From Escherichia coli (GTDB lineage Bacteria > Pseudomonadota > Gammaproteobacteria > Enterobacterales > Enterobacteriaceae), in the NCBI RefSeq assembly GCF_051903065.1, contig NZ_CP178440.1: a stretch of DNA of 64,000 bases. One strand, written 5' to 3'. Shown here piece by piece: positions 4,467 to 22,029 of this stretch. The translations under genes and the position numbers were made by a program. How positions within the stretch are numbered: the first letter of the stretch is position 1; each line of letters begins with the position of its first letter. The notes under the pieces are model-generated. The model was not told the origin of the DNA. It did not search any database and saw only the letters and a list, made by a program, of their open reading frames with translations.

Positions 4467-4820
4467 TTAATTTATTAGCTTCATCGCATTTTTTTTGGTC
4501 TCTTCATCACTTTTTTGCTCTTGTTGTGAAGAGGATTGAGTAACTATTGAAGAATTAAAATCGGCCATCTCTTTTGGAAATAGCGATCTCAATATATTCA
4601 CGATATCTGAAAATGTGGTTTCTTTCGTCAGCAGCTCACATAAAAGGAAAGGGGTCCGGGGATCTTGTCTGTATAAGGCCAGACCTGCCGTCAGTGCGGC
4701 CCGGTTAAGGCGGCTTCGTTCCCCTTGCGGGATACTGTCCAGTGTATCACAAACAATTTTATCTGTTTGATTTACATCTGGATTTAGTTTGAAGGCAATG
4801 GTTCTGCGCTTGTCCATCAT
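4467..4820 (-). CDS. parR: Plasmid partition adaptor ParR (StbB), type II partition system
   Basis: 117-aa ORF immediately downstream of and overlapping parM; matches R1/R100 ParR from memory. Confidence 0.8.
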   Translation of the reverse strand: MMDKRRTIAFKLNPDVNQTDKIVCDTLDSIPQGERSRLNRAALTAGLALYRQDPRTPFLLCELLTKETTFSDIVNILRSLFPKEMADFNSSIVTQSSSQQEQKSDEETKKNAMKLIN

Positions 4821-5782
4821 TAATTACCTATGAGATACATACCGTTAACTAAATCATATTGAGAGTTATTGGTTTTGAAAAAACGTTCATCACGAATCTG
4901 TGTGTGTTTTTTTACTGCATCGCATATTAATTCTGCGCCACCGCCTATAACCATAACATGAGTATAACCAGAAAATTCATTGAGCGTATTTAATACACGT
5001 TGCTCAAGTTTACGAAGTGCGTCATTCATTGCTTCGGTGACTATTGATATTTTGTTCTCATCATTAATTCGTTGCTTCAGATAGTTGTTGTCTTTTCTGT
5101 GAATAATTATATCGTCAGCAAGATAGCTACTTCCTTTTGTTCTCGCAAGAGAAAGTGCATCTTTTACTGCAGATGTGACCAGAGATACACCAAGAGATGA
5201 GTCTCCGTATATTTTACTGATCCCCGATAATTTCCCCATTACCTGAGAAATATCTAATGTGGTGCCCCCGAGATCTATAATTAATAAAGAATCTAACTCA
5301 TCCAGTTCTTGTAGAACTTCATAACCTGCCGGTATAGATTCAGGCATGACTTTTACATCTTTTATTGTGAATGTATCCCCACCATTTAATGTAATTTTTT
5401 TCCGGAAGTTTGCTTTCTTACGCTCAATATTTTCCGTATTGGGTTGGTTATTTCTGTCGTAATACTCTGTCAGAGGAAGTGTGCAAACAATATCCACTTC
5501 GCTTACCGGCAGACCACTGGTCAGTAAGGCGTGGTGCACCGCAACGACATTAACGTCGCTGTATTGCCATGCGATATTGGTTGTGACTACAGCATCCGGG
5601 CTGATTGGATCAAATGAATACTGTTCGCCGTTCAGTGTGTAGTTAAAGACCTTTTTATCACCAAAAGAGACTGCCCACTCGCGTTTGAAGCTGTTCGGGC
5701 TAATGTGCTGTTTAATTGTTCCGTCGTTTTCCTGCCACTGTAGTTTGATGTTTGTTGAACCGTCATCAATGAATACCAACAT
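4820..5782 (-). CDS. parM: Actin-like segregation ATPase ParM (StbA)
   Basis: 320-aa [20 protein letters not shown]... with DLGGTTLD phosphate-binding motif; near-identical to R1 ParM as recalled. Confidence 0.9.
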
Positions 5783-15016: not shown

Positions 15017-15591
15017 ATGTCAGTTACAGAGTCTAAGGCAAAAACGGAGCGTAAATCCAGCCGTAAACCTGCAAAAACGCAGGAAACAGTCCTGTCTGCC
15101 CTGCTGGCGGAGACGGCTGAAGTGAGCGTGCCGCTGGCCTCGCTGATTAAGTCACCGCTGAATGTGCGCACGGTGCCGTATTCTGCGGAGTCCGTCAGCG
15201 AACTGGCAGAGTCCATTAAAGGTGTCGGCCTGCTGCAGAATCTGGTTGTCCATGCCCTGCCTGGTGACCGTTACGGTGTCGCCGCAGGTGGTCGCAGGCT
15301 GGCGGCACTCAATATGCTGGCAGAGCGTGGCATCCTTCCGGCTGACTGGCCTGTCCGCGTGAAGGTCATCCCGCAGGAACTGGCGACGGCGGCATCGATG
15401 ACCGAGAACGGTCATCGTCGGGATATGCACCCTGCCGAACAGATTTCCGGATTCCGTGCAATGGCGCAGGAAGGCAAAACACCTGCACAAATCGGTGATT
15501 TGCTGGGCTATTCACCCCGCCATGTCCAGCGAATGCTGAAACTGGCAGACCTTGCGCCTGTCATCCTCGATGCGCTGGCAGAAGACCGCAT
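15017..15591 (+). pseudogene. ParB-like leading-region gene, N-terminal fragment interrupted by IS26 copy 2
   Basis: ORF runs without a stop into the IS26 left inverted repeat at 15592; remainder resumes in frame at 20742. Confidence 0.6.
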
Positions 15592-16411
15592 GGCACTGTT
15601 GCAAATAGTCGGTGGTGATAAACTTATCATCCCCTTTTGCTGATGGAGCTGCACATGAACCCATTCAAAGGCCGGCATTTTCAGCGTGACATCATTCTGT
15701 GGGCCGTACGCTGGTACTGCAAATACGGCATCAGTTACCGTGAGCTGCAGGAGATGCTGGCTGAACGCGGAGTGAATGTCGATCACTCCACGATTTACCG
15801 CTGGGTTCAGCGTTATGCGCCTGAAATGGAAAAACGGCTGCGCTGGTACTGGCGTAACCCTTCCGATCTTTGCCCGTGGCACATGGATGAAACCTACGTG
15901 AAGGTCAATGGCCGCTGGGCGTATCTGTACCGGGCCGTCGACAGCCGGGGCCGCACTGTCGATTTTTATCTCTCCTCCCGTCGTAACAGCAAAGCTGCAT
16001 ACCGGTTTCTGGGTAAAATCCTCAACAACGTGAAGAAGTGGCAGATCCCGCGATTCATCAACACGGATAAAGCGCCCGCCTATGGTCGCGCGCTTGCTCT
16101 GCTCAAACGCGAAGGCCGGTGCCCGTCTGACGTTGAACACCGACAGATTAAGTACCGGAACAACGTGATTGAATGCGATCATGGCAAACTGAAACGGATA
16201 ATCAACGCCACGCTGGGATTTAAATCCATGAAGACGGCTTACGCCACCATCAAAGGTATTGAGGTGATGCGTGCACTACGCAAAGGCCAGGCCTCAGCAT
16301 TTTATTATGGTGATCCCCTGGGCGAAATGCGCCTGGTAAGCAGAGTTTTTGAAATGTAAGGCCTTTGAATAAGACAAAAGGCTGCCTCATCGCTAACTTT
16401 GCAACAGTGCC
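15592..16411 (+). mobile_element. IS26 copy 2 (820 bp)
   Basis: Exact 14-bp terminal inverted repeats; flanking 8-mers gaccgcat and ttgtgaac. Confidence 0.95.
15655..16359 (+). CDS. tnpA: IS26 transposase
   Basis: Identical translation to the other copies. Confidence 0.95.
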   Translation: MNPFKGRHFQRDIILWAVRWYCKYGISYRELQEMLAERGVNVDHSTIYRWVQRYAPEMEKRLRWYWRNPSDLCPWHMDETYVKVNGRWAYLYRAVDSRGRTVDFYLSSRRNSKAAYRFLGKILNNVKKWQIPRFINTDKAPAYGRALALLKREGRCPSDVEHRQIKYRNNVIECDHGKLKRIINATLGFKSMKTAYATIKGIEVMRALRKGQASAFYYGDPLGEMRLVSRVFEM

Positions 16412-16907
16412 TTGTGAACCTTATTGATGATCGTACCGATGATATTTTGTATGGAAGGCCATGGTACAAAAAATGGACGATGGGGAGAATGATCTCATTT
16501 AACACATCTTCGCCTTACGCCAATGCTAATGGAAGATTAAGAAAGTGGGCAAAAAATAATAATATCAGTTTAAAGTAAGCATCAGAATGAAATTATATGG
16601 ACGAAAAATTTCTCTATTAACTGCACCATGGCTGGTAAAATCTCTTACCCTTGATGAAAATACAGGTTCCGTTACTGTTACGGTCGGAATCGCTGAAAAT
16701 ACCTATAACCATCGTAAATGGTTCCACTTTGATACCTGCCTGTTCATTACCCAGTGCGCCGTAAAGCCCCGTCCTTCAGGGCGTGGAGGATGTCAAATTA
16801 GTAGAAGCCGATGCTGGGAGCAATGTTCCACTACGGGAAGCTGAATATGGCGTTCTGAGCCTTCCTACAATTATCGGGGAAGCCCCATCTGCGTACTCCG
16901 GATTTTT

Positions 16908-17035
16908 GTTTATATGATCATGGGATTATATGATTATATCATTTTGTAACTATTTGATTATGTAATTTTATGATTGCATAATTTTATGAATATGAGATTA
17001 TTTGAATACTTGGCAGAGGTACTATTTGAACAAAG
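16908..17035. promoter_or_regulatory. Array of about 7 degenerate AT-rich direct repeats (TT(A/T)TGA(T/A)T) upstream of parA; candidate centromere/operator
   Basis: ttatatgatca, ttatatgattat, tttgattatgt, ttttatgattg, ttttatgaata, ttatttgaata, tatttgaaca read at roughly 11-12 bp spacing. Confidence 0.5.
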
Positions 17036-17046
17036 GGGAGAGGTGA

Positions 17047-17670
17047 ATGCCTAACGTGATAGCATTTTTAAATGGTAAGGGGGGGGTGTCTAAGACAACC
17101 TCGGCAGTTAATATTGCTACTGCTCTTGCTCGTAAGGGTTACAAAGTTGTTGTTGTGGATACCGATCCCCAGGGAAGTGTTAGTAACTGGTATGATGACA
17201 GTAAGTGTGTTTTTGATGTAGCGGAAGCTACGGCAGAAAAAGAAATTTACCGTTTGCGGAAGGCGCTTCCTTTGCACGATTTTATCATTATTGATGGTGC
17301 TGCTGCGATTTCGGCGATATCGGCGGCTGCTGTTATGGTTTCTGATCTTGTTATTATTCCAGTTACTCCTTCGCCGCTTGATTTTGCTGCGTGTGGCGCG
17401 ATATTGGCAGTGATAGAAGCTCGTCAGGATTTACGCCCGGTGATTGCTCGCTTTTTGATTACTAAAAAAGTACAGCAAACGCATATGTTATCTTTGCTGA
17501 AAGAATCTATTGCAGAAACAAGCATACCAGCATTAAAAACAGGAACGTCGTACAGGCAGTCATATATAAGATCTATGCTGGATGGTGGTACTATATTTGA
17601 TACAAAAGATAGTGCTGCTAAAGGTGAAATATCAGTTATTACAGAAGAAATACTTGGACTATTAAAATGA
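17047..17670 (+). CDS. ParA-family partition ATPase (small, type Ib-like)
   Basis: Deviant Walker [11 protein letters not shown] at N-terminus, 207 aa. Confidence 0.85.
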
Positions 17671-17873
17671 GTAAAATGAAACTTGGGAATCATAAGGCAA
17701 CAAACACTGCTCTGGATGCACTGAAGAAACCTGCGGGAGCAACCAGAAAGTTACAAATGAATATTCCAGAAGAGTTACATCTTGCATTTAAATTAGCTTG
17801 TGTGGAAGATGGCATTGATATGACACAGGTAAATATAGAACTCATTCAAAACTGGTTAAAGAGTCGTAACTGA
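17667..17873 (+). CDS. Small partition partner protein (ParG-like, probable ribbon-helix-helix centromere binder)
   Basis: 68-aa ORF overlapping parA stop; basic N-terminal tail then short structured domain. Confidence 0.5.
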
Positions 17874-18182
17874 TAGTGTTTCAGCCAGTCGTAATCTGCG
17901 ACGCAAACAAAAAGCGCTGTCCCGCAAGCTCAATGCGGCACTCAACATCCGGCAAAAAGGAATACAGGAACTACAGGCGACGGGACTCGTCGTCACTGCC
18001 CATGGAGACCAGCGTAAATCCGTCGTACAGAAGAGGATAAAATGGGAGAGCAGTTATCGATTCCCTATCCGGGCAGCCCGTTTACGGGCCGTAAGTAACG
18101 AAGTTGGATGCAAATGTCAGATCGTGTGCGCCTGTTAGGGCGCGGCTGGTAAGAGAGCCTTATAGGCGCATTTGAAAAACCT

Positions 18183-18206
18183 CCGGCTATGCCGGAGGAT
18201 ATTTAT
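18183..18206. terminator. Bidirectional rho-independent terminator hairpin (cctccggc ... gccggagg) flanked by A/T runs
   Basis: Perfect stem with T-run on the minus strand about 80 nt downstream of the adhesin stop. Confidence 0.5.
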
Positions 18207-18284
18207 TTATCGAGTTCGGTGACCGCCTGGACGGTCACTTCTGAGACAAGGCATTTACACAGAATCTTAAACAGGCTCGCTAAT

Positions 18285-19775
18285 TTACCACCCAATGGCA
18301 AAACCAGCTCCTAAGTTTGTATCACCACCATTGTTCCATGATGTGTTGACTCGTATGTTAGCATTCTGGCTCACTTTATATTGAACTCCGGCTGCGATTG
18401 CTTGAGCATCACGATAATGCCCCACGCCCATACCAAATGAAAAGCGCTCATTATTAACATAAGGAATTGATGAAATAGCGGTAACTCCGGCAATACCCGC
18501 ATTAGCACGCTTTTCGACTCTATCTATTTTTTTATTCATTTGTGAGAATCTTTGCTCATTTTTCTGCTGTAAATCATTTAATGTTTTATTGAAGTTTTTA
18601 CCTAATGTATCAACGCTAGATGCAGTATATTTGTTTGCCATTTCTAGAGTGTTTAAATCACCTTGTTCACGGAGTCTTTTCTCTTCATTGATTGCACTTG
18701 TTCTGGCTTTTTTTTCTTCATTTATTCTTGCAACTACTGATTTGCTGGGGTCTTTTTCTATATTTTTAATTTCATCTTCACTCATGCCTATAGCTTTAGT
18801 GACAACATCTAATTGGGACATATTCACAGCATCTGTAGGATTTACGCCCCCGGCAAGATTCGTGATTCTTCTGTTTATCATGGGCTCTGTCGTTGTTGCT
18901 TCCCTTCCTAAAGATACAACACCATTCTTACTATCTGTGTTCTCTACAGCGGTATATTTAGATACAGTATCATCATATTGATTATGCGTTTTCGATCTTG
19001 CCCCAAGAGCAATACTGCCTTTTGAATTAGACTCAGATAAATATCCAATGGAAACAGAATCAGTTTCCTGAGAGGCTGAATATGATCCTAATGCAATACT
19101 ATTTTTACCAATGGAATGAGACTCTAATCCTATGGCAGAACTGCCAGAGCCAATTGATAATGATTGACTACCCAATGCTGTACCAAATTCACCAACCACC
19201 GTCGAAAAGGAACCTACTGCCGTTCCTTCAATATTGTGGGAACTTGATTTATATCCCATTACAGATGACGCATATTGATTCCCATATTTCTCCTTAGCAT
19301 GAGGATCAACAGATGAGTCAACAGAAATATGTCCATCAGCGGATACTGTTATTTTTTTACCACTCACATCTAAGGATGAATTATTTTCAGGCAATTTAGT
19401 TACTGAAGCTTTGTTACCGATTAAAGTTGAATAGTTTCCTTCTGAATCAATTTTCGATCTGGATCCAACTATAGTCGAAAAAGTCCCTGCTTCTGTTGCA
19501 GAATCGTATCCTATTACTACTGATGCTCCTGCTCCTCCTTTTTCTGGTATATTCAAAGACTTAGAATTTGGACCTATTACTACTGAGAAATTTTGTTCTG
19601 ATCTTGTAGCATCACCAATTCCCTTACCAATAGCGATACTGCCAATACCTGAAGATTCTGTATTATCCGCACCAATAGCTATAGATGAGTAGCCTTTAGG
19701 ATTAGCAGCAAAAGAACAAAGGCTAACACCAGATAATGTTAATAGTATAGATGATAAAATTAATTTATTATTCAT
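18285..19775 (-). CDS. Trimeric autotransporter adhesin (YadA-like head repeats, coiled-coil stalk, C-terminal beta-barrel anchor)
   Basis: Signal peptide MNNKLILSSILLTLSGVSLCSFA, repetitive SIAIG/SxGxxS head motifs, heptad-rich stalk, C-terminal anchor ending GAGFAIGW. Confidence 0.8.
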   Translation of the reverse strand: MNNKLILSSILLTLSGVSLCSFAANPKGYSSIAIGADNTESSGIGSIAIGKGIGDATRSEQNFSVVIGPNSKSLNIPEKGGAGASVVIGYDSATEAGTFSTIVGSRSKIDSEGNYSTLIGNKASVTKLPENNSSLDVSGKKITVSADGHISVDSSVDPHAKEKYGNQYASSVMGYKSSSHNIEGTAVGSFSTVVGEFGTALGSQSLSIGSGSSAIGLESHSIGKNSIALGSYSASQETDSVSIGYLSESNSKGSIALGARSKTHNQYDDTVSKYTAVENTDSKNGVVSLGREATTTEPMINRRITNLAGGVNPTDAVNMSQLDVVTKAIGMSEDEIKNIEKDPSKSVVARINEEKKARTSAINEEKRLREQGDLNTLEMANKYTASSVDTLGKNFNKTLNDLQQKNEQRFSQMNKKIDRVEKRANAGIAGVTAISSIPYVNNERFSFGMGVGHYRDAQAIAAGVQYKVSQNANIRVNTSWNNGGDTNLGAGFAIGW

Positions 19776-19921
19776 AGCAACATATCCCACCAAAGTAGAT
19801 AGATTATCGTTATTCCTCGATAAATAAATTGCAATGTAAGATACATTAATCTTAACAATGTGTTAACATAAGAGGCTGTTAACACATTTAGTTTATAACA
19901 TAAAACATCATAAATATTAAG

Positions 19922-20741
19922 GGCACTGTTGCAAATAGTCGGTGGTGATAAACTTATCATCCCCTTTTGCTGATGGAGCTGCACATGAACCCATTCAAAG
20001 GCCGGCATTTTCAGCGTGACATCATTCTGTGGGCCGTACGCTGGTACTGCAAATACGGCATCAGTTACCGTGAGCTGCAGGAGATGCTGGCTGAACGCGG
20101 AGTGAATGTCGATCACTCCACGATTTACCGCTGGGTTCAGCGTTATGCGCCTGAAATGGAAAAACGGCTGCGCTGGTACTGGCGTAACCCTTCCGATCTT
20201 TGCCCGTGGCACATGGATGAAACCTACGTGAAGGTCAATGGCCGCTGGGCGTATCTGTACCGGGCCGTCGACAGCCGGGGCCGCACTGTCGATTTTTATC
20301 TCTCCTCCCGTCGTAACAGCAAAGCTGCATACCGGTTTCTGGGTAAAATCCTCAACAACGTGAAGAAGTGGCAGATCCCGCGATTCATCAACACGGATAA
20401 AGCGCCCGCCTATGGTCGCGCGCTTGCTCTGCTCAAACGCGAAGGCCGGTGCCCGTCTGACGTTGAACACCGACAGATTAAGTACCGGAACAACGTGATT
20501 GAATGCGATCATGGCAAACTGAAACGGATAATCAACGCCACGCTGGGATTTAAATCCATGAAGACGGCTTACGCCACCATCAAAGGTATTGAGGTGATGC
20601 GTGCACTACGCAAAGGCCAGGCCTCAGCATTTTATTATGGTGATCCCCTGGGCGAAATGCGCCTGGTAAGCAGAGTTTTTGAAATGTAAGGCCTTTGAAT
20701 AAGACAAAAGGCTGCCTCATCGCTAACTTTGCAACAGTGCC
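19922..20741 (+). mobile_element. IS26 copy 3 (820 bp), same orientation as copy 2
   Basis: Exact terminal inverted repeats; flanking 8-mers atattaag and accggaag. Confidence 0.95.
19985..20689 (+). CDS. tnpA: IS26 transposase
   Basis: Identical translation to the other copies. Confidence 0.95.
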   Translation: MNPFKGRHFQRDIILWAVRWYCKYGISYRELQEMLAERGVNVDHSTIYRWVQRYAPEMEKRLRWYWRNPSDLCPWHMDETYVKVNGRWAYLYRAVDSRGRTVDFYLSSRRNSKAAYRFLGKILNNVKKWQIPRFINTDKAPAYGRALALLKREGRCPSDVEHRQIKYRNNVIECDHGKLKRIINATLGFKSMKTAYATIKGIEVMRALRKGQASAFYYGDPLGEMRLVSRVFEM

Positions 20742-22029
20742 ACCGGAAGTACAGACCATTCGTCGTCTGGTGACCGAAAGTGAAGTGGCGGTGGCGGGGA
20801 ACAGTAAATTCCGCTTCGTGGGGGCTGATGCCTTCTCGCCAGACGAACTGCGCACCGATTTGTTCAGCGATGACGGGGACGGTTATGTCGACCGCGTGGC
20901 GCTCGATGCTGCCCTGCTGGAAAAACTCCAGGCTGTCGCAGAGTTCCTTCGGGAAGCCGAGGGCTGGGGATGGTGCGCCGGACGCATGGAGCCTGTCGGT
21001 GAATGCCGTGAAGATGCCCGGGCATACCGCAACCTGCCGGAGCCGGAAGCGGTGCTGACGGAGGCGGAAGAAGAACACCTGAACGAACTGATGGCACGTT
21101 ACGACGCGCTGGAAAACCAGTGTGAGGAATCTGACCTGCTGGCAGCAGAAATGAAGCTGATTGACTGCATGGCGAAGGTCAGGGCGTGGACGCCGGAGAT
21201 GCGTGCCGGAAGTGGCGTGGTGGTGTCCTGGCGTTACGGTAATGTGTGTATCCAGCGTGGTGTGCAGTTGCGCAGTGAGGATGATGTGGCTGACGACGCT
21301 GACCGCACGGAACAGGGGCTGGAGAGCGCGTCAGTGGAGGAAATCAGTCTGCCGTTGCTGACTAAACTGACCTCAGAGCGCACGCTGGCAGTCCAGGCAG
21401 CACTGATGCAGCAACCGGACAAATCCCTGGCACTGCTGGCATGGACGCTCTGCCTGAATGTGTTTGACAGCAAAGCGCACTGTAGTCCCGCCAGAATTCG
21501 CCTGGCATGTGAGCATTATGCGCTGACCAGCGATGCACCGTCGGGGAAGGAAGGTGCCGCATTCATGGCGCTGATGGCAGAACACTCTCGTTTTGCTGCC
21601 CTGCTGCCGGAAGGATGGGAACGGGATATGACGACGTTCCTGTCACTCAGCCAGGAGGTGCTGTTATCCCTGCTCAGCTTCTGTACCGCGTGCAGTCTTA
21701 ACGGTGTCCAGACCCGAGAGTGTGGTCACACGTCACGCAGTCCGCTTGACTCGCTGGAAACCGCCATCGGCTTTCACATGCGCGACTGGTGGCAGCCGAC
21801 AAAAGCAAACTTCTTCGGACACCTGAAAAAGCCGCAGATTATCGCAGCTCTGAATGAGGCAGGACTGTCCGGTGCCGCACGGGACGCGGAGAAGATGAAG
21901 AAAGGCGATGCGGCTGAACATGCAGAGTTCCATATGAAAGACAACCGCTGGGTGCCTGGCTGGATGTGTGCACCACGTCCACAGACGGATACCACTGAAC
22001 GCACCGATAACCTGGCTGATGCCGCCTGA
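20742..22029 (+). pseudogene. ParB-like leading-region gene, C-terminal fragment (continues the frame interrupted at 15591)
   Basis: Open frame begins exactly at the IS26 boundary; joining 15591 to 20742 gives codon ata and an uninterrupted frame. Confidence 0.6.

Follow-up and report, generated by a model that had tools for sequence, protein, structure and literature searches.

Does a plasmid that already possesses a type II ParMR system carry a second, imported partition system, and if so, to which family does it belong? The question is raised by a cassette within a stretch of 64,000 nucleotides of Escherichia coli DNA (hereafter, the window), for which the initial annotation had reported a small ParA, a 68-aa partner and an AT-rich array; all three elements are indeed found in the places assigned to them. 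An ORF scan together with inspection of the sequence gives the gene order as repeat array, parF-like gene, parG-like gene. With a probability that we put at roughly 0.87, as judged from sequence comparisons, this cassette is a complete type Ib (ParF/ParG-type) plasmid partition system with its own centromere-like array. The locus is real but ordinary, the ParF/ParG kind being well studied. Its homology, fold, gene order, array architecture, cross-genus box conservation, purifying selection and IS26 context are shown here.

The cassette encodes a small ATPase of the ParF family

The parF-like gene (17047..17670, + strand) encodes a small type Ib ParA ATPase of 207 aa. This protein matches TP228 ParF in full length (PDB 4dzz, E=3.7e-70, residues 3-205 against 2-204; 5u1g likewise at ~4e-70), which bears out the earlier assignment of the ORF to the small type I ParAs. 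Its identity to the TP228-type ParF of E. coli and IncX1 plasmids amounts to 54%, without gaps. A deviant Walker A motif, KGGVSKT, occupies residues 11-17 (K11, K16), and the alignments show conservation of the A' motif (DTDPQ) and of the B motif (hydrophobic residues, then D). The Pfam matches of the protein are to the P-loop families AAA_31 and CbiA. At 207 aa it is devoid of an N-terminal DNA-binding extension, and type Ia ParA/SopA proteins match it via the P-loop region only. The NCBIfam model NF041546, 'ParA family partition ATPase', aligns over its full length (E=7e-51) with 172.7 bits and so narrowly misses its cut-off of 180; accordingly, the RefSeq name of the identical 207-aa protein is simply 'ParA family protein' (WP_060555116.1). 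A purine-rich, Shine-Dalgarno-like element, GGGGAGAGG (17035..17043, + strand), can be read from the sequence and ends 3 nt before the parF ATG.

The 68-aa partner is a predicted ribbon-helix-helix protein of the ParG type

The parG-like gene (17667..17873, + strand) has the same orientation as parF, and its start overlaps the parF end by 4 bp (ATGA). Its product is a predicted ribbon-helix-helix centromere-binding protein of 68 aa. It scores 44.5 bits (E=1.8e-11) on the Pfam ParG family, PF09274, whose cut-off is 21.4, the match covering profile positions 12-74 of 76, and a sequence search retrieved the ParG NMR structure, PDB 1p94, with E=4e-7. No NCBIfam model matches the 68-aa protein; the identical protein in RefSeq is named 'plasmid partition protein ParG' (WP_060555117.1).

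Modelling with AlphaFold2 from 12 aligned sequences gave an extended stretch at residues 26-33 followed by helices 35-48 and 52-67, with pLDDT ~90; the strand is not assigned as such in this monomer model, and the N-terminal tail (residues 1-25) is of low confidence. When the PDB was searched with the model by Foldseek, 1p94 ParG came out on top (probability 0.97), followed by CopG, MatP, VapB and other ribbon-helix-helix chains at weak E-values. The predicted ribbon of the window's ParG is R27-KLQMNIP-34. The Pfam match, the 1p94 match and the model thus agree with the proposal in the initial annotation of a ribbon-helix-helix-like partner. The same annotation considered that neither the repeats nor the partner belonged to a nameable family, which does not hold: the family is the ParF/ParG family of TP228, and the array has the build of parH/OF.

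Both genes are under purifying selection relative to their copies on ~30-kb E. coli plasmids, with a dN/dS of 0.055 for parF and of 0.019 for parG against one such plasmid copy.

A phased 8-bp array precedes parF

The region upstream of parFG in TP228 contains 20 degenerate 5'-ACTC-3' boxes with constant 4-bp AT-rich spacers; twelve of them form the parH centromere and eight the OF operator, and parH and OF are separable sub-sites (PMC3130281). Each box is bound by one ParG dimer, a centromere requires ~8 boxes to function efficiently, and OF by itself can also serve as one (PMC3130281).

In the window, the core of the parH/operator-like array (16911..17006, + strand) comprises twelve 8-bp units of consensus TATaTGAT. 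In 8-bp register from 16911, it reads TATATGAT CATGGGAT TATATGAT TATATCAT TTTGTAAC TATTTGAT TATGTAAT TTTATGAT TGCATAAT TTTATGAA TATGAGAT TATTTGAA. Each unit is made up of a 4-bp box, (T/G)(G/A)AT, and a 4-bp AT-rich spacer, the boxes of this 8-bp layout being TGAT, GGAT, TAAT and similar. Degenerate units flank the core on both sides. The proximal degenerate end (17007..17030, + strand) reads TACTTGGC AGAGGTAC TATTTGAA, the last of these units (17023-17030) being a good match. A repeat search recovered the TATTTGAA-type family at both 16999 and 17023, as well as ten in-register copies at 8-bp spacing. With twelve core units and one to three flanking ones, the box count lies above the ~8 needed in TP228.

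The periodicity of the array is strong. Autocorrelation over 16900-17046 reaches 0.52 at lag 8, 0.54 at lag 16 and 0.59 at lag 24, while all other lags up to 24 give values of 0.26-0.38. In composition-preserving shuffles the lag-8 value is 0.32 +/- 0.037, and the observed one was reached in 0 of 5000, which confirms that an AT-rich direct-repeat array lies upstream of the genes. Tandem Repeats Finder assigns 16924-17005 a period of 16 bp and 5.1 copies. The TGAT boxes take turns with weaker TAAT/TAAC boxes, giving the array a super-period of 16 bp. In the alignment with two ~30-kb plasmids (L002/L003), a 16-bp, that is two-unit, indel is found at 16935-16960 (alignment columns 195-210). This suggests that such arrays grow and shrink by unit pairs, in line with the 16-bp super-period. 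The array had earlier been called an 'iteron array'; the array itself stands, but the term is loose, as its unit of 8 bp (16 bp as a pair) is not a replication iteron.

Collectively, the repeat pattern designates 16911-17006 as the predicted ParG binding site, acting as centromere and operator. The boxes are not the ACTC boxes that mark the TP228 specificity group. Since the box differs and the architecture is the same, the array would fall in another specificity group than TP228, and the two should not be cross-recognised.

The array contains a 10-nt inverted repeat at 16957-16982, ATTATGTAAT / ATTGCATAAT, with a 6-nt gap. On the minus strand, a scan with the position matrix described below also scores well on the array itself, which reflects its partial dyad symmetry. 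Given the inverted repeat and the minus-strand score, some of the boxes may be recognised in the opposite orientation, as happens in the TP228 operator.

No promoter could be placed confidently. The sole 9-of-12 match, a sigma-70-like candidate (16954..16982, + strand; TTGATT, 17 nt, CATAAT) identified by its consensus only, falls within the array. Its -35 element is not conserved in the ~30-kb plasmids, and the consensus scan yielded 4 matches against 4.7 in shuffles. A confident promoter placement was consequently dropped, matches being no commoner than in shuffles and the -35 of the in-array candidate not being conserved. If this promoter is real, binding of ParG would repress parFG; since it is not confidently placed, autoregulation is extrapolated here from TP228. 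A search of 16380-19960 for structured RNA gave no Rfam match at E<=0.1.

Related loci of other genera point to the array as the cognate site

Homologues of the window's ParF were found by tblastn on 780 plasmids. Ten loci fetched from this set and three close relatives from a DNA search, thirteen records in all, were compared. A lag-8 excess in the 200 bp upstream of parF is present in 12 of the 12 further loci, with z = 2.4 to 10.6. One locus (L011) serves as a positive control: its ParG ribbon is KRVNVNFD, its ParG matches that of PDB 1p94 over the aligned stretch, and its upstream region carries ACTC boxes in an 8-bp register.

The window's ParG falls in a subclade in which ParG is short (66-70 aa) and carries the ribbon KKLQ(M/T/I)NI, and in which parF overlaps parG. 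The remaining members, found in Serratia, Pantoea, Arsenophonus, Rahnella and Erwinia pyrifoliae, have ParF proteins 65-72% identical to that of the window. The arrays of this subclade are composed of (G/T)GATTA(C/T)A units, such as GGATTACA, TGATTACA and TGATTATA, and the core of these units is that of TGATTATA in the window. On a Pantoea agglomerans plasmid (L007), eight consecutive perfect GATTACAG units lie ~100-30 bp upstream of parF. On a Serratia nevei plasmid (L004), the region upstream of parF holds several GGATTACA runs, broken by a GC-rich GGAGGGCA block, with the same 8-bp period. The N-terminal tail of TP228 ParG contains an arginine-finger residue (PMC7308502). K10 of the window's ParG aligns with this residue; elsewhere in the subclade the position holds K or, as in Rahnella and E. 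pyrifoliae, R.

A position matrix was derived from the other-genus loci only (five genera) and scanned over the 64 kb as six phased units. Its best score in the window is 29.2, at 16923, whereas no score elsewhere exceeds -1.3 on the + strand or 4.2 on the - strand, over a background of -54.5 +/- 13.7. Because a matrix from other genera alone picks out the window's array, the evidence is non-circular, and the array is by this sequence criterion the predicted cognate site type of the window's ParG subclade. The matrix scans detected no second phased box cluster in the 64-kb window on either strand, including the region downstream of parG.

Outside one near-identical record, the closest copies of the cassette are on the ~30-kb E. 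coli plasmids, at ~95% nucleotide identity. The window's ParG is 99% identical to the protein of these plasmids, and the boxes are common to both arrays. In the ~30-kb plasmids, the array is likewise situated directly upstream of parF and is collinear with that of the window. Apart from the indel, the two upstream regions align through the array to ~16885, ~25 bp 5' of it.

The cassette lies between two IS26 copies within yubM of an F-type plasmid

The window belongs to an F-type plasmid, with a transfer region that includes finO and a leading region with ssb, psiA, an antirestriction gene and a methylase. The resident type II partition genes (4467-5782, - strand) are parM (4820-5782) and parR (4467-4820), with the domains StbA_N (E=4e-81), ParM C-terminal domain (E=9e-72) and Plasmid_stab_B (E=3e-30). 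The cassette is located between a left IS26 (15592..16411, + strand, 820 bp) and a right IS26 (19922..20741, + strand), which is identical to the left copy and has the same orientation, tnpA being on the + strand in both. The view of a second, imported system beside parMR is thereby upheld. The left IS26 end lies ~500 bp upstream of the array, so that the array is not truncated by IS26.

The IS26-bounded segment (16412..19921, 3510 bp) sits inside yubM, a leading-region gene with a ParB N-domain, and is a mosaic of a truncated ClbS/DfsB fragment, the par cassette, IS200/IS605 remnants and a YadA-like adhesin gene. No 8-bp target-site duplication surrounds the IS26 unit, whose flanks are GACCGCAT (15584-15591) and ACCGGAAG (20742-20749). 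The joined flanks measure 800 bp here against 896 bp in intact plasmids, hence 96 bp of yubM are missing; the reading frame nevertheless continues from one yubM half into the other, giving an ORF of 640 aa when they are joined. A simple one-step insertion of an IS26 compound transposon is not supported, given the missing duplication and the 96-bp loss, and these two features together suggest IS26-associated deletion or recombination instead. Three identical IS26 copies are present in the window, the third (1365-2184) being inverted relative to the other two. It adjoins blaCTX-M (120-995, - strand; NCBIfam 626.8 bits against a cut-off of 570). The plasmid carries several IS26-associated modules.

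The only other complete record with the parFG-adhesin block is pM172-1.1 (IncFIA), at 99.9%, where the block is not flanked by this IS26 pair. The YadA-like trimeric autotransporter adhesin gene (18285-19793, - strand) encodes 502 aa, in which head repeats as well as stalk and anchor domains are recognised. Few complete E. coli genomes contain it: there are two records at 99.9% and a few at ~92% that are annotated as hypothetical. Since the right IS26 starts only 128 bp upstream of the adhesin gene start, the native promoter region of this gene may be cut by it. A G+C-rich, bidirectional terminator-like hairpin lies at 18180-18198. In the interval between parG and the adhesin gene, at ~17923-18098, partial TnpB/InsQ and IS200/IS605 transposase pseudogenes are found (RefSeq annotation of pM172-1.1). 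At the other end of the segment, the ClbS/DfsB (DUF1706) fragment (16399-16578) is the C-terminal part of a four-helix-bundle protein that the left IS26 has truncated. The DNA at 16412-16702 is 90.6% identical to a ClbS-ISEc53 junction that is common on F-type plasmids and chromosomes. An 85-aa ORF at 16587-16844 was discarded as a gene: it has no family match and spans the start (~16651) of the sequence common to pM172-1.1.

Alternative readings of the locus

Could the repeats have nothing to do with ParG? The 200 bp upstream of parF have an AT content of 66%, and AT-rich DNA gives spurious short repeats, so the array might be chance low-complexity DNA; it might also consist of replication iterons unrelated to ParG. 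However, the periodicity is confined to lags 8, 16 and 24 and is unmatched in the shuffles, and parF homologues in five other genera are preceded by the same unit. Moreover, no rep gene adjoins the array, and replication iterons are typically much longer than 8 bp. The periodicity and the recurrence upstream of parF homologues lead us to reject both ideas, to which we give almost no weight. It is very unlikely, though less extremely so, that the array is the parFG operator only and that the true centromere was left behind at IS26 capture, which would leave a cassette unable to partition. Such a loss could be imagined from the separable parH and OF sub-sites of TP228, and some type Ib loci, for example par2 of pB171, have centromere sites on both sides of the genes. 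Yet the 12-13 units of the array exceed the number of boxes sufficient in TP228, where OF alone can act as a centromere, and the 64 kb hold no second phased box cluster on either strand. The collinearity of the array with that of the ~30-kb plasmids, also placed directly upstream of parF, likewise speaks against a lost centromere.

A different doubt bears on what an intact cassette contributes. It could be only a passenger, carried as IS26 cargo with no measurable stability gain beside parMR, and its main effect would then be partition incompatibility with any ~30-kb plasmids residing in the same cell. Several observations fit: the segment is a mosaic with truncated genes (ClbS fragment, TnpB/IS200 remnants), the parFG-adhesin block occurs at 99.9% in a single other complete record, and parMR is present and intact, a contribution to stability not being needed to explain why the cassette is there. 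The incompatibility part agrees with the near identity of the ParG proteins and with the boxes shared with the ~30-kb plasmids. On the other hand, nothing is missing from the two ORFs, the ribosome-binding site or the array, ~500 bp of native DNA separate the array from the IS26 upstream of it, and pairs of type I ribbon-helix-helix and type II systems are frequent on enterobacterial plasmids. We regard the absence of any contribution as possible but doubtful. In any event, it is compatible with the main explanation, as it concerns the contribution of the cassette and not its identity.

Proposed mechanism and significance

As a complete ParF/ParG-type system, the cassette is a second partition system, mechanistically independent of parMR, and its mode of action can be outlined after TP228. 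The cassette arrived on the 3.5-kb segment bounded by two IS26 copies, into yubM of the F-type plasmid, its closest natural homes being the ~30-kb E. coli plasmids. As in TP228, the beta-ribbons of ParG dimers would enter the major groove at the boxes of 4 bp, and, also as in TP228, the dimers would bind cooperatively by helix-to-helix contacts across the 4-bp AT-rich spacers, coating the ~100-bp array. The ParG-coated array would constitute the partition complex, and, with the array overlapping or adjoining the promoter, ParG binding would also repress parFG. ATP-bound ParF would assemble on or within the nucleoid and capture the ParG-coated plasmid. The ParG tail would stimulate ATP hydrolysis, and the plasmid copies would be moved apart. 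We infer the binding of ParG to DNA, autoregulation, stimulation of the ATPase and any stabilising effect on this plasmid from TP228 by analogy.

The importance of the locus is modest: a resistance plasmid with blaCTX-M and an F-type transfer region gained, via IS26, a mechanistically different second partition system, which could affect plasmid stability as well as compatibility with small plasmids of the same centromere. The cassette does not challenge the current understanding of plasmid partition, and its natural ribbon-box pair (RKLQMNIP with (T/G)(G/A)AT) and its lysine at the arginine-finger position can be compared against the TP228 paradigm. More speculatively, the short-tail ParG subclade may form a functionally orthogonal ParFG specificity group, and IS26 may move the whole self-contained cassette, together with its centromere, from one replicon to another as a portable stability/incompatibility module; we offer this only tentatively and judge it rather unlikely. 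The marks of the group may be a ParG of 66-70 aa, the ribbon xKLQxNIx, (G/T)(G/A)AT boxes and a lysine/arginine 'finger'. If true, the module could displace ~30-kb plasmids dependent on the same centromere, or it could lend stability to the F-type plasmid in hosts in which parMR is inefficient.

Comparison with known partition systems

The ParF-ParG-parH/OF system of TP228 is also found on IncX1 plasmids such as pSE34. The cassette shares with it the array-parF-parG order, a ParF of the same size that aligns without gaps, a ribbon-helix-helix partner with a probably flexible N-terminal tail and a site of 4-bp boxes and 4-bp AT-rich spacers in an 8-bp repeat. By contrast, the ParG proteins are only 39% identical over the folded domain. 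The ribbon is RKLQMNIP here and KRVNVNFD in TP228, and the boxes are (T/G)(G/A)AT and ACTC, respectively, the difference in boxes fitting the difference in ribbons. ParG has 68 aa instead of 76, its tail is ~8-10 residues shorter and K10 stands in place of the arginine finger. Furthermore, parF and parG overlap by 4 bp here, whereas a gap of ~50 bp separates them in the TP228 type, and ~13 units form one block in place of 12 + 8.

Variation of this sort has precedents. Zampini and Hayes (2012) listed >250 ParG homologues with >90 distinct ribbons, in which divergent ribbons go along with divergent tetramer boxes upstream of parF, the 4-bp AT-rich spacing being fixed; sites of this kind can be recognised by inspection of the sequence preceding parF (PMC3413123). 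For instance, the box is GA(C/T)A for ParGYp of Yersinia pseudotuberculosis and CAT(T/G) for ParGAs of Aliivibrio salmonicida (PMC3413123). The box and ribbon of the window differ from both, and the spacing principle is the same. For the short-tail subclade (66-70 aa; E. coli, Serratia, Pantoea, Rahnella, Erwinia pyrifoliae, Arsenophonus), a literature search that was not exhaustive found no binding data. The novelty implied in the initial annotation does not hold, as ParG homologues with their own boxes had already been described (PMC3413123) and the pairing of ribbon-helix-helix type I with type II systems had been counted (PMC13245405). What may be new is limited to the pairing of this ribbon with this box and to lysine as the finger-position residue.

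Pairs of a type I system with a ribbon-helix-helix ParB and a type II ParMR system occur in 971 PLSDB accessions and had also been reported earlier (PMC13245405). The arrangement in the window resembles pB171 (par1 and par2), in that an actin-type and a small-ParA-type system reside on one enterobacterial plasmid. Unlike in pB171-type pairs, the two systems are not adjacent here but 11 kb apart, and the type Ib system is visibly recent, bounded by IS26 and located outside the plasmid backbone.
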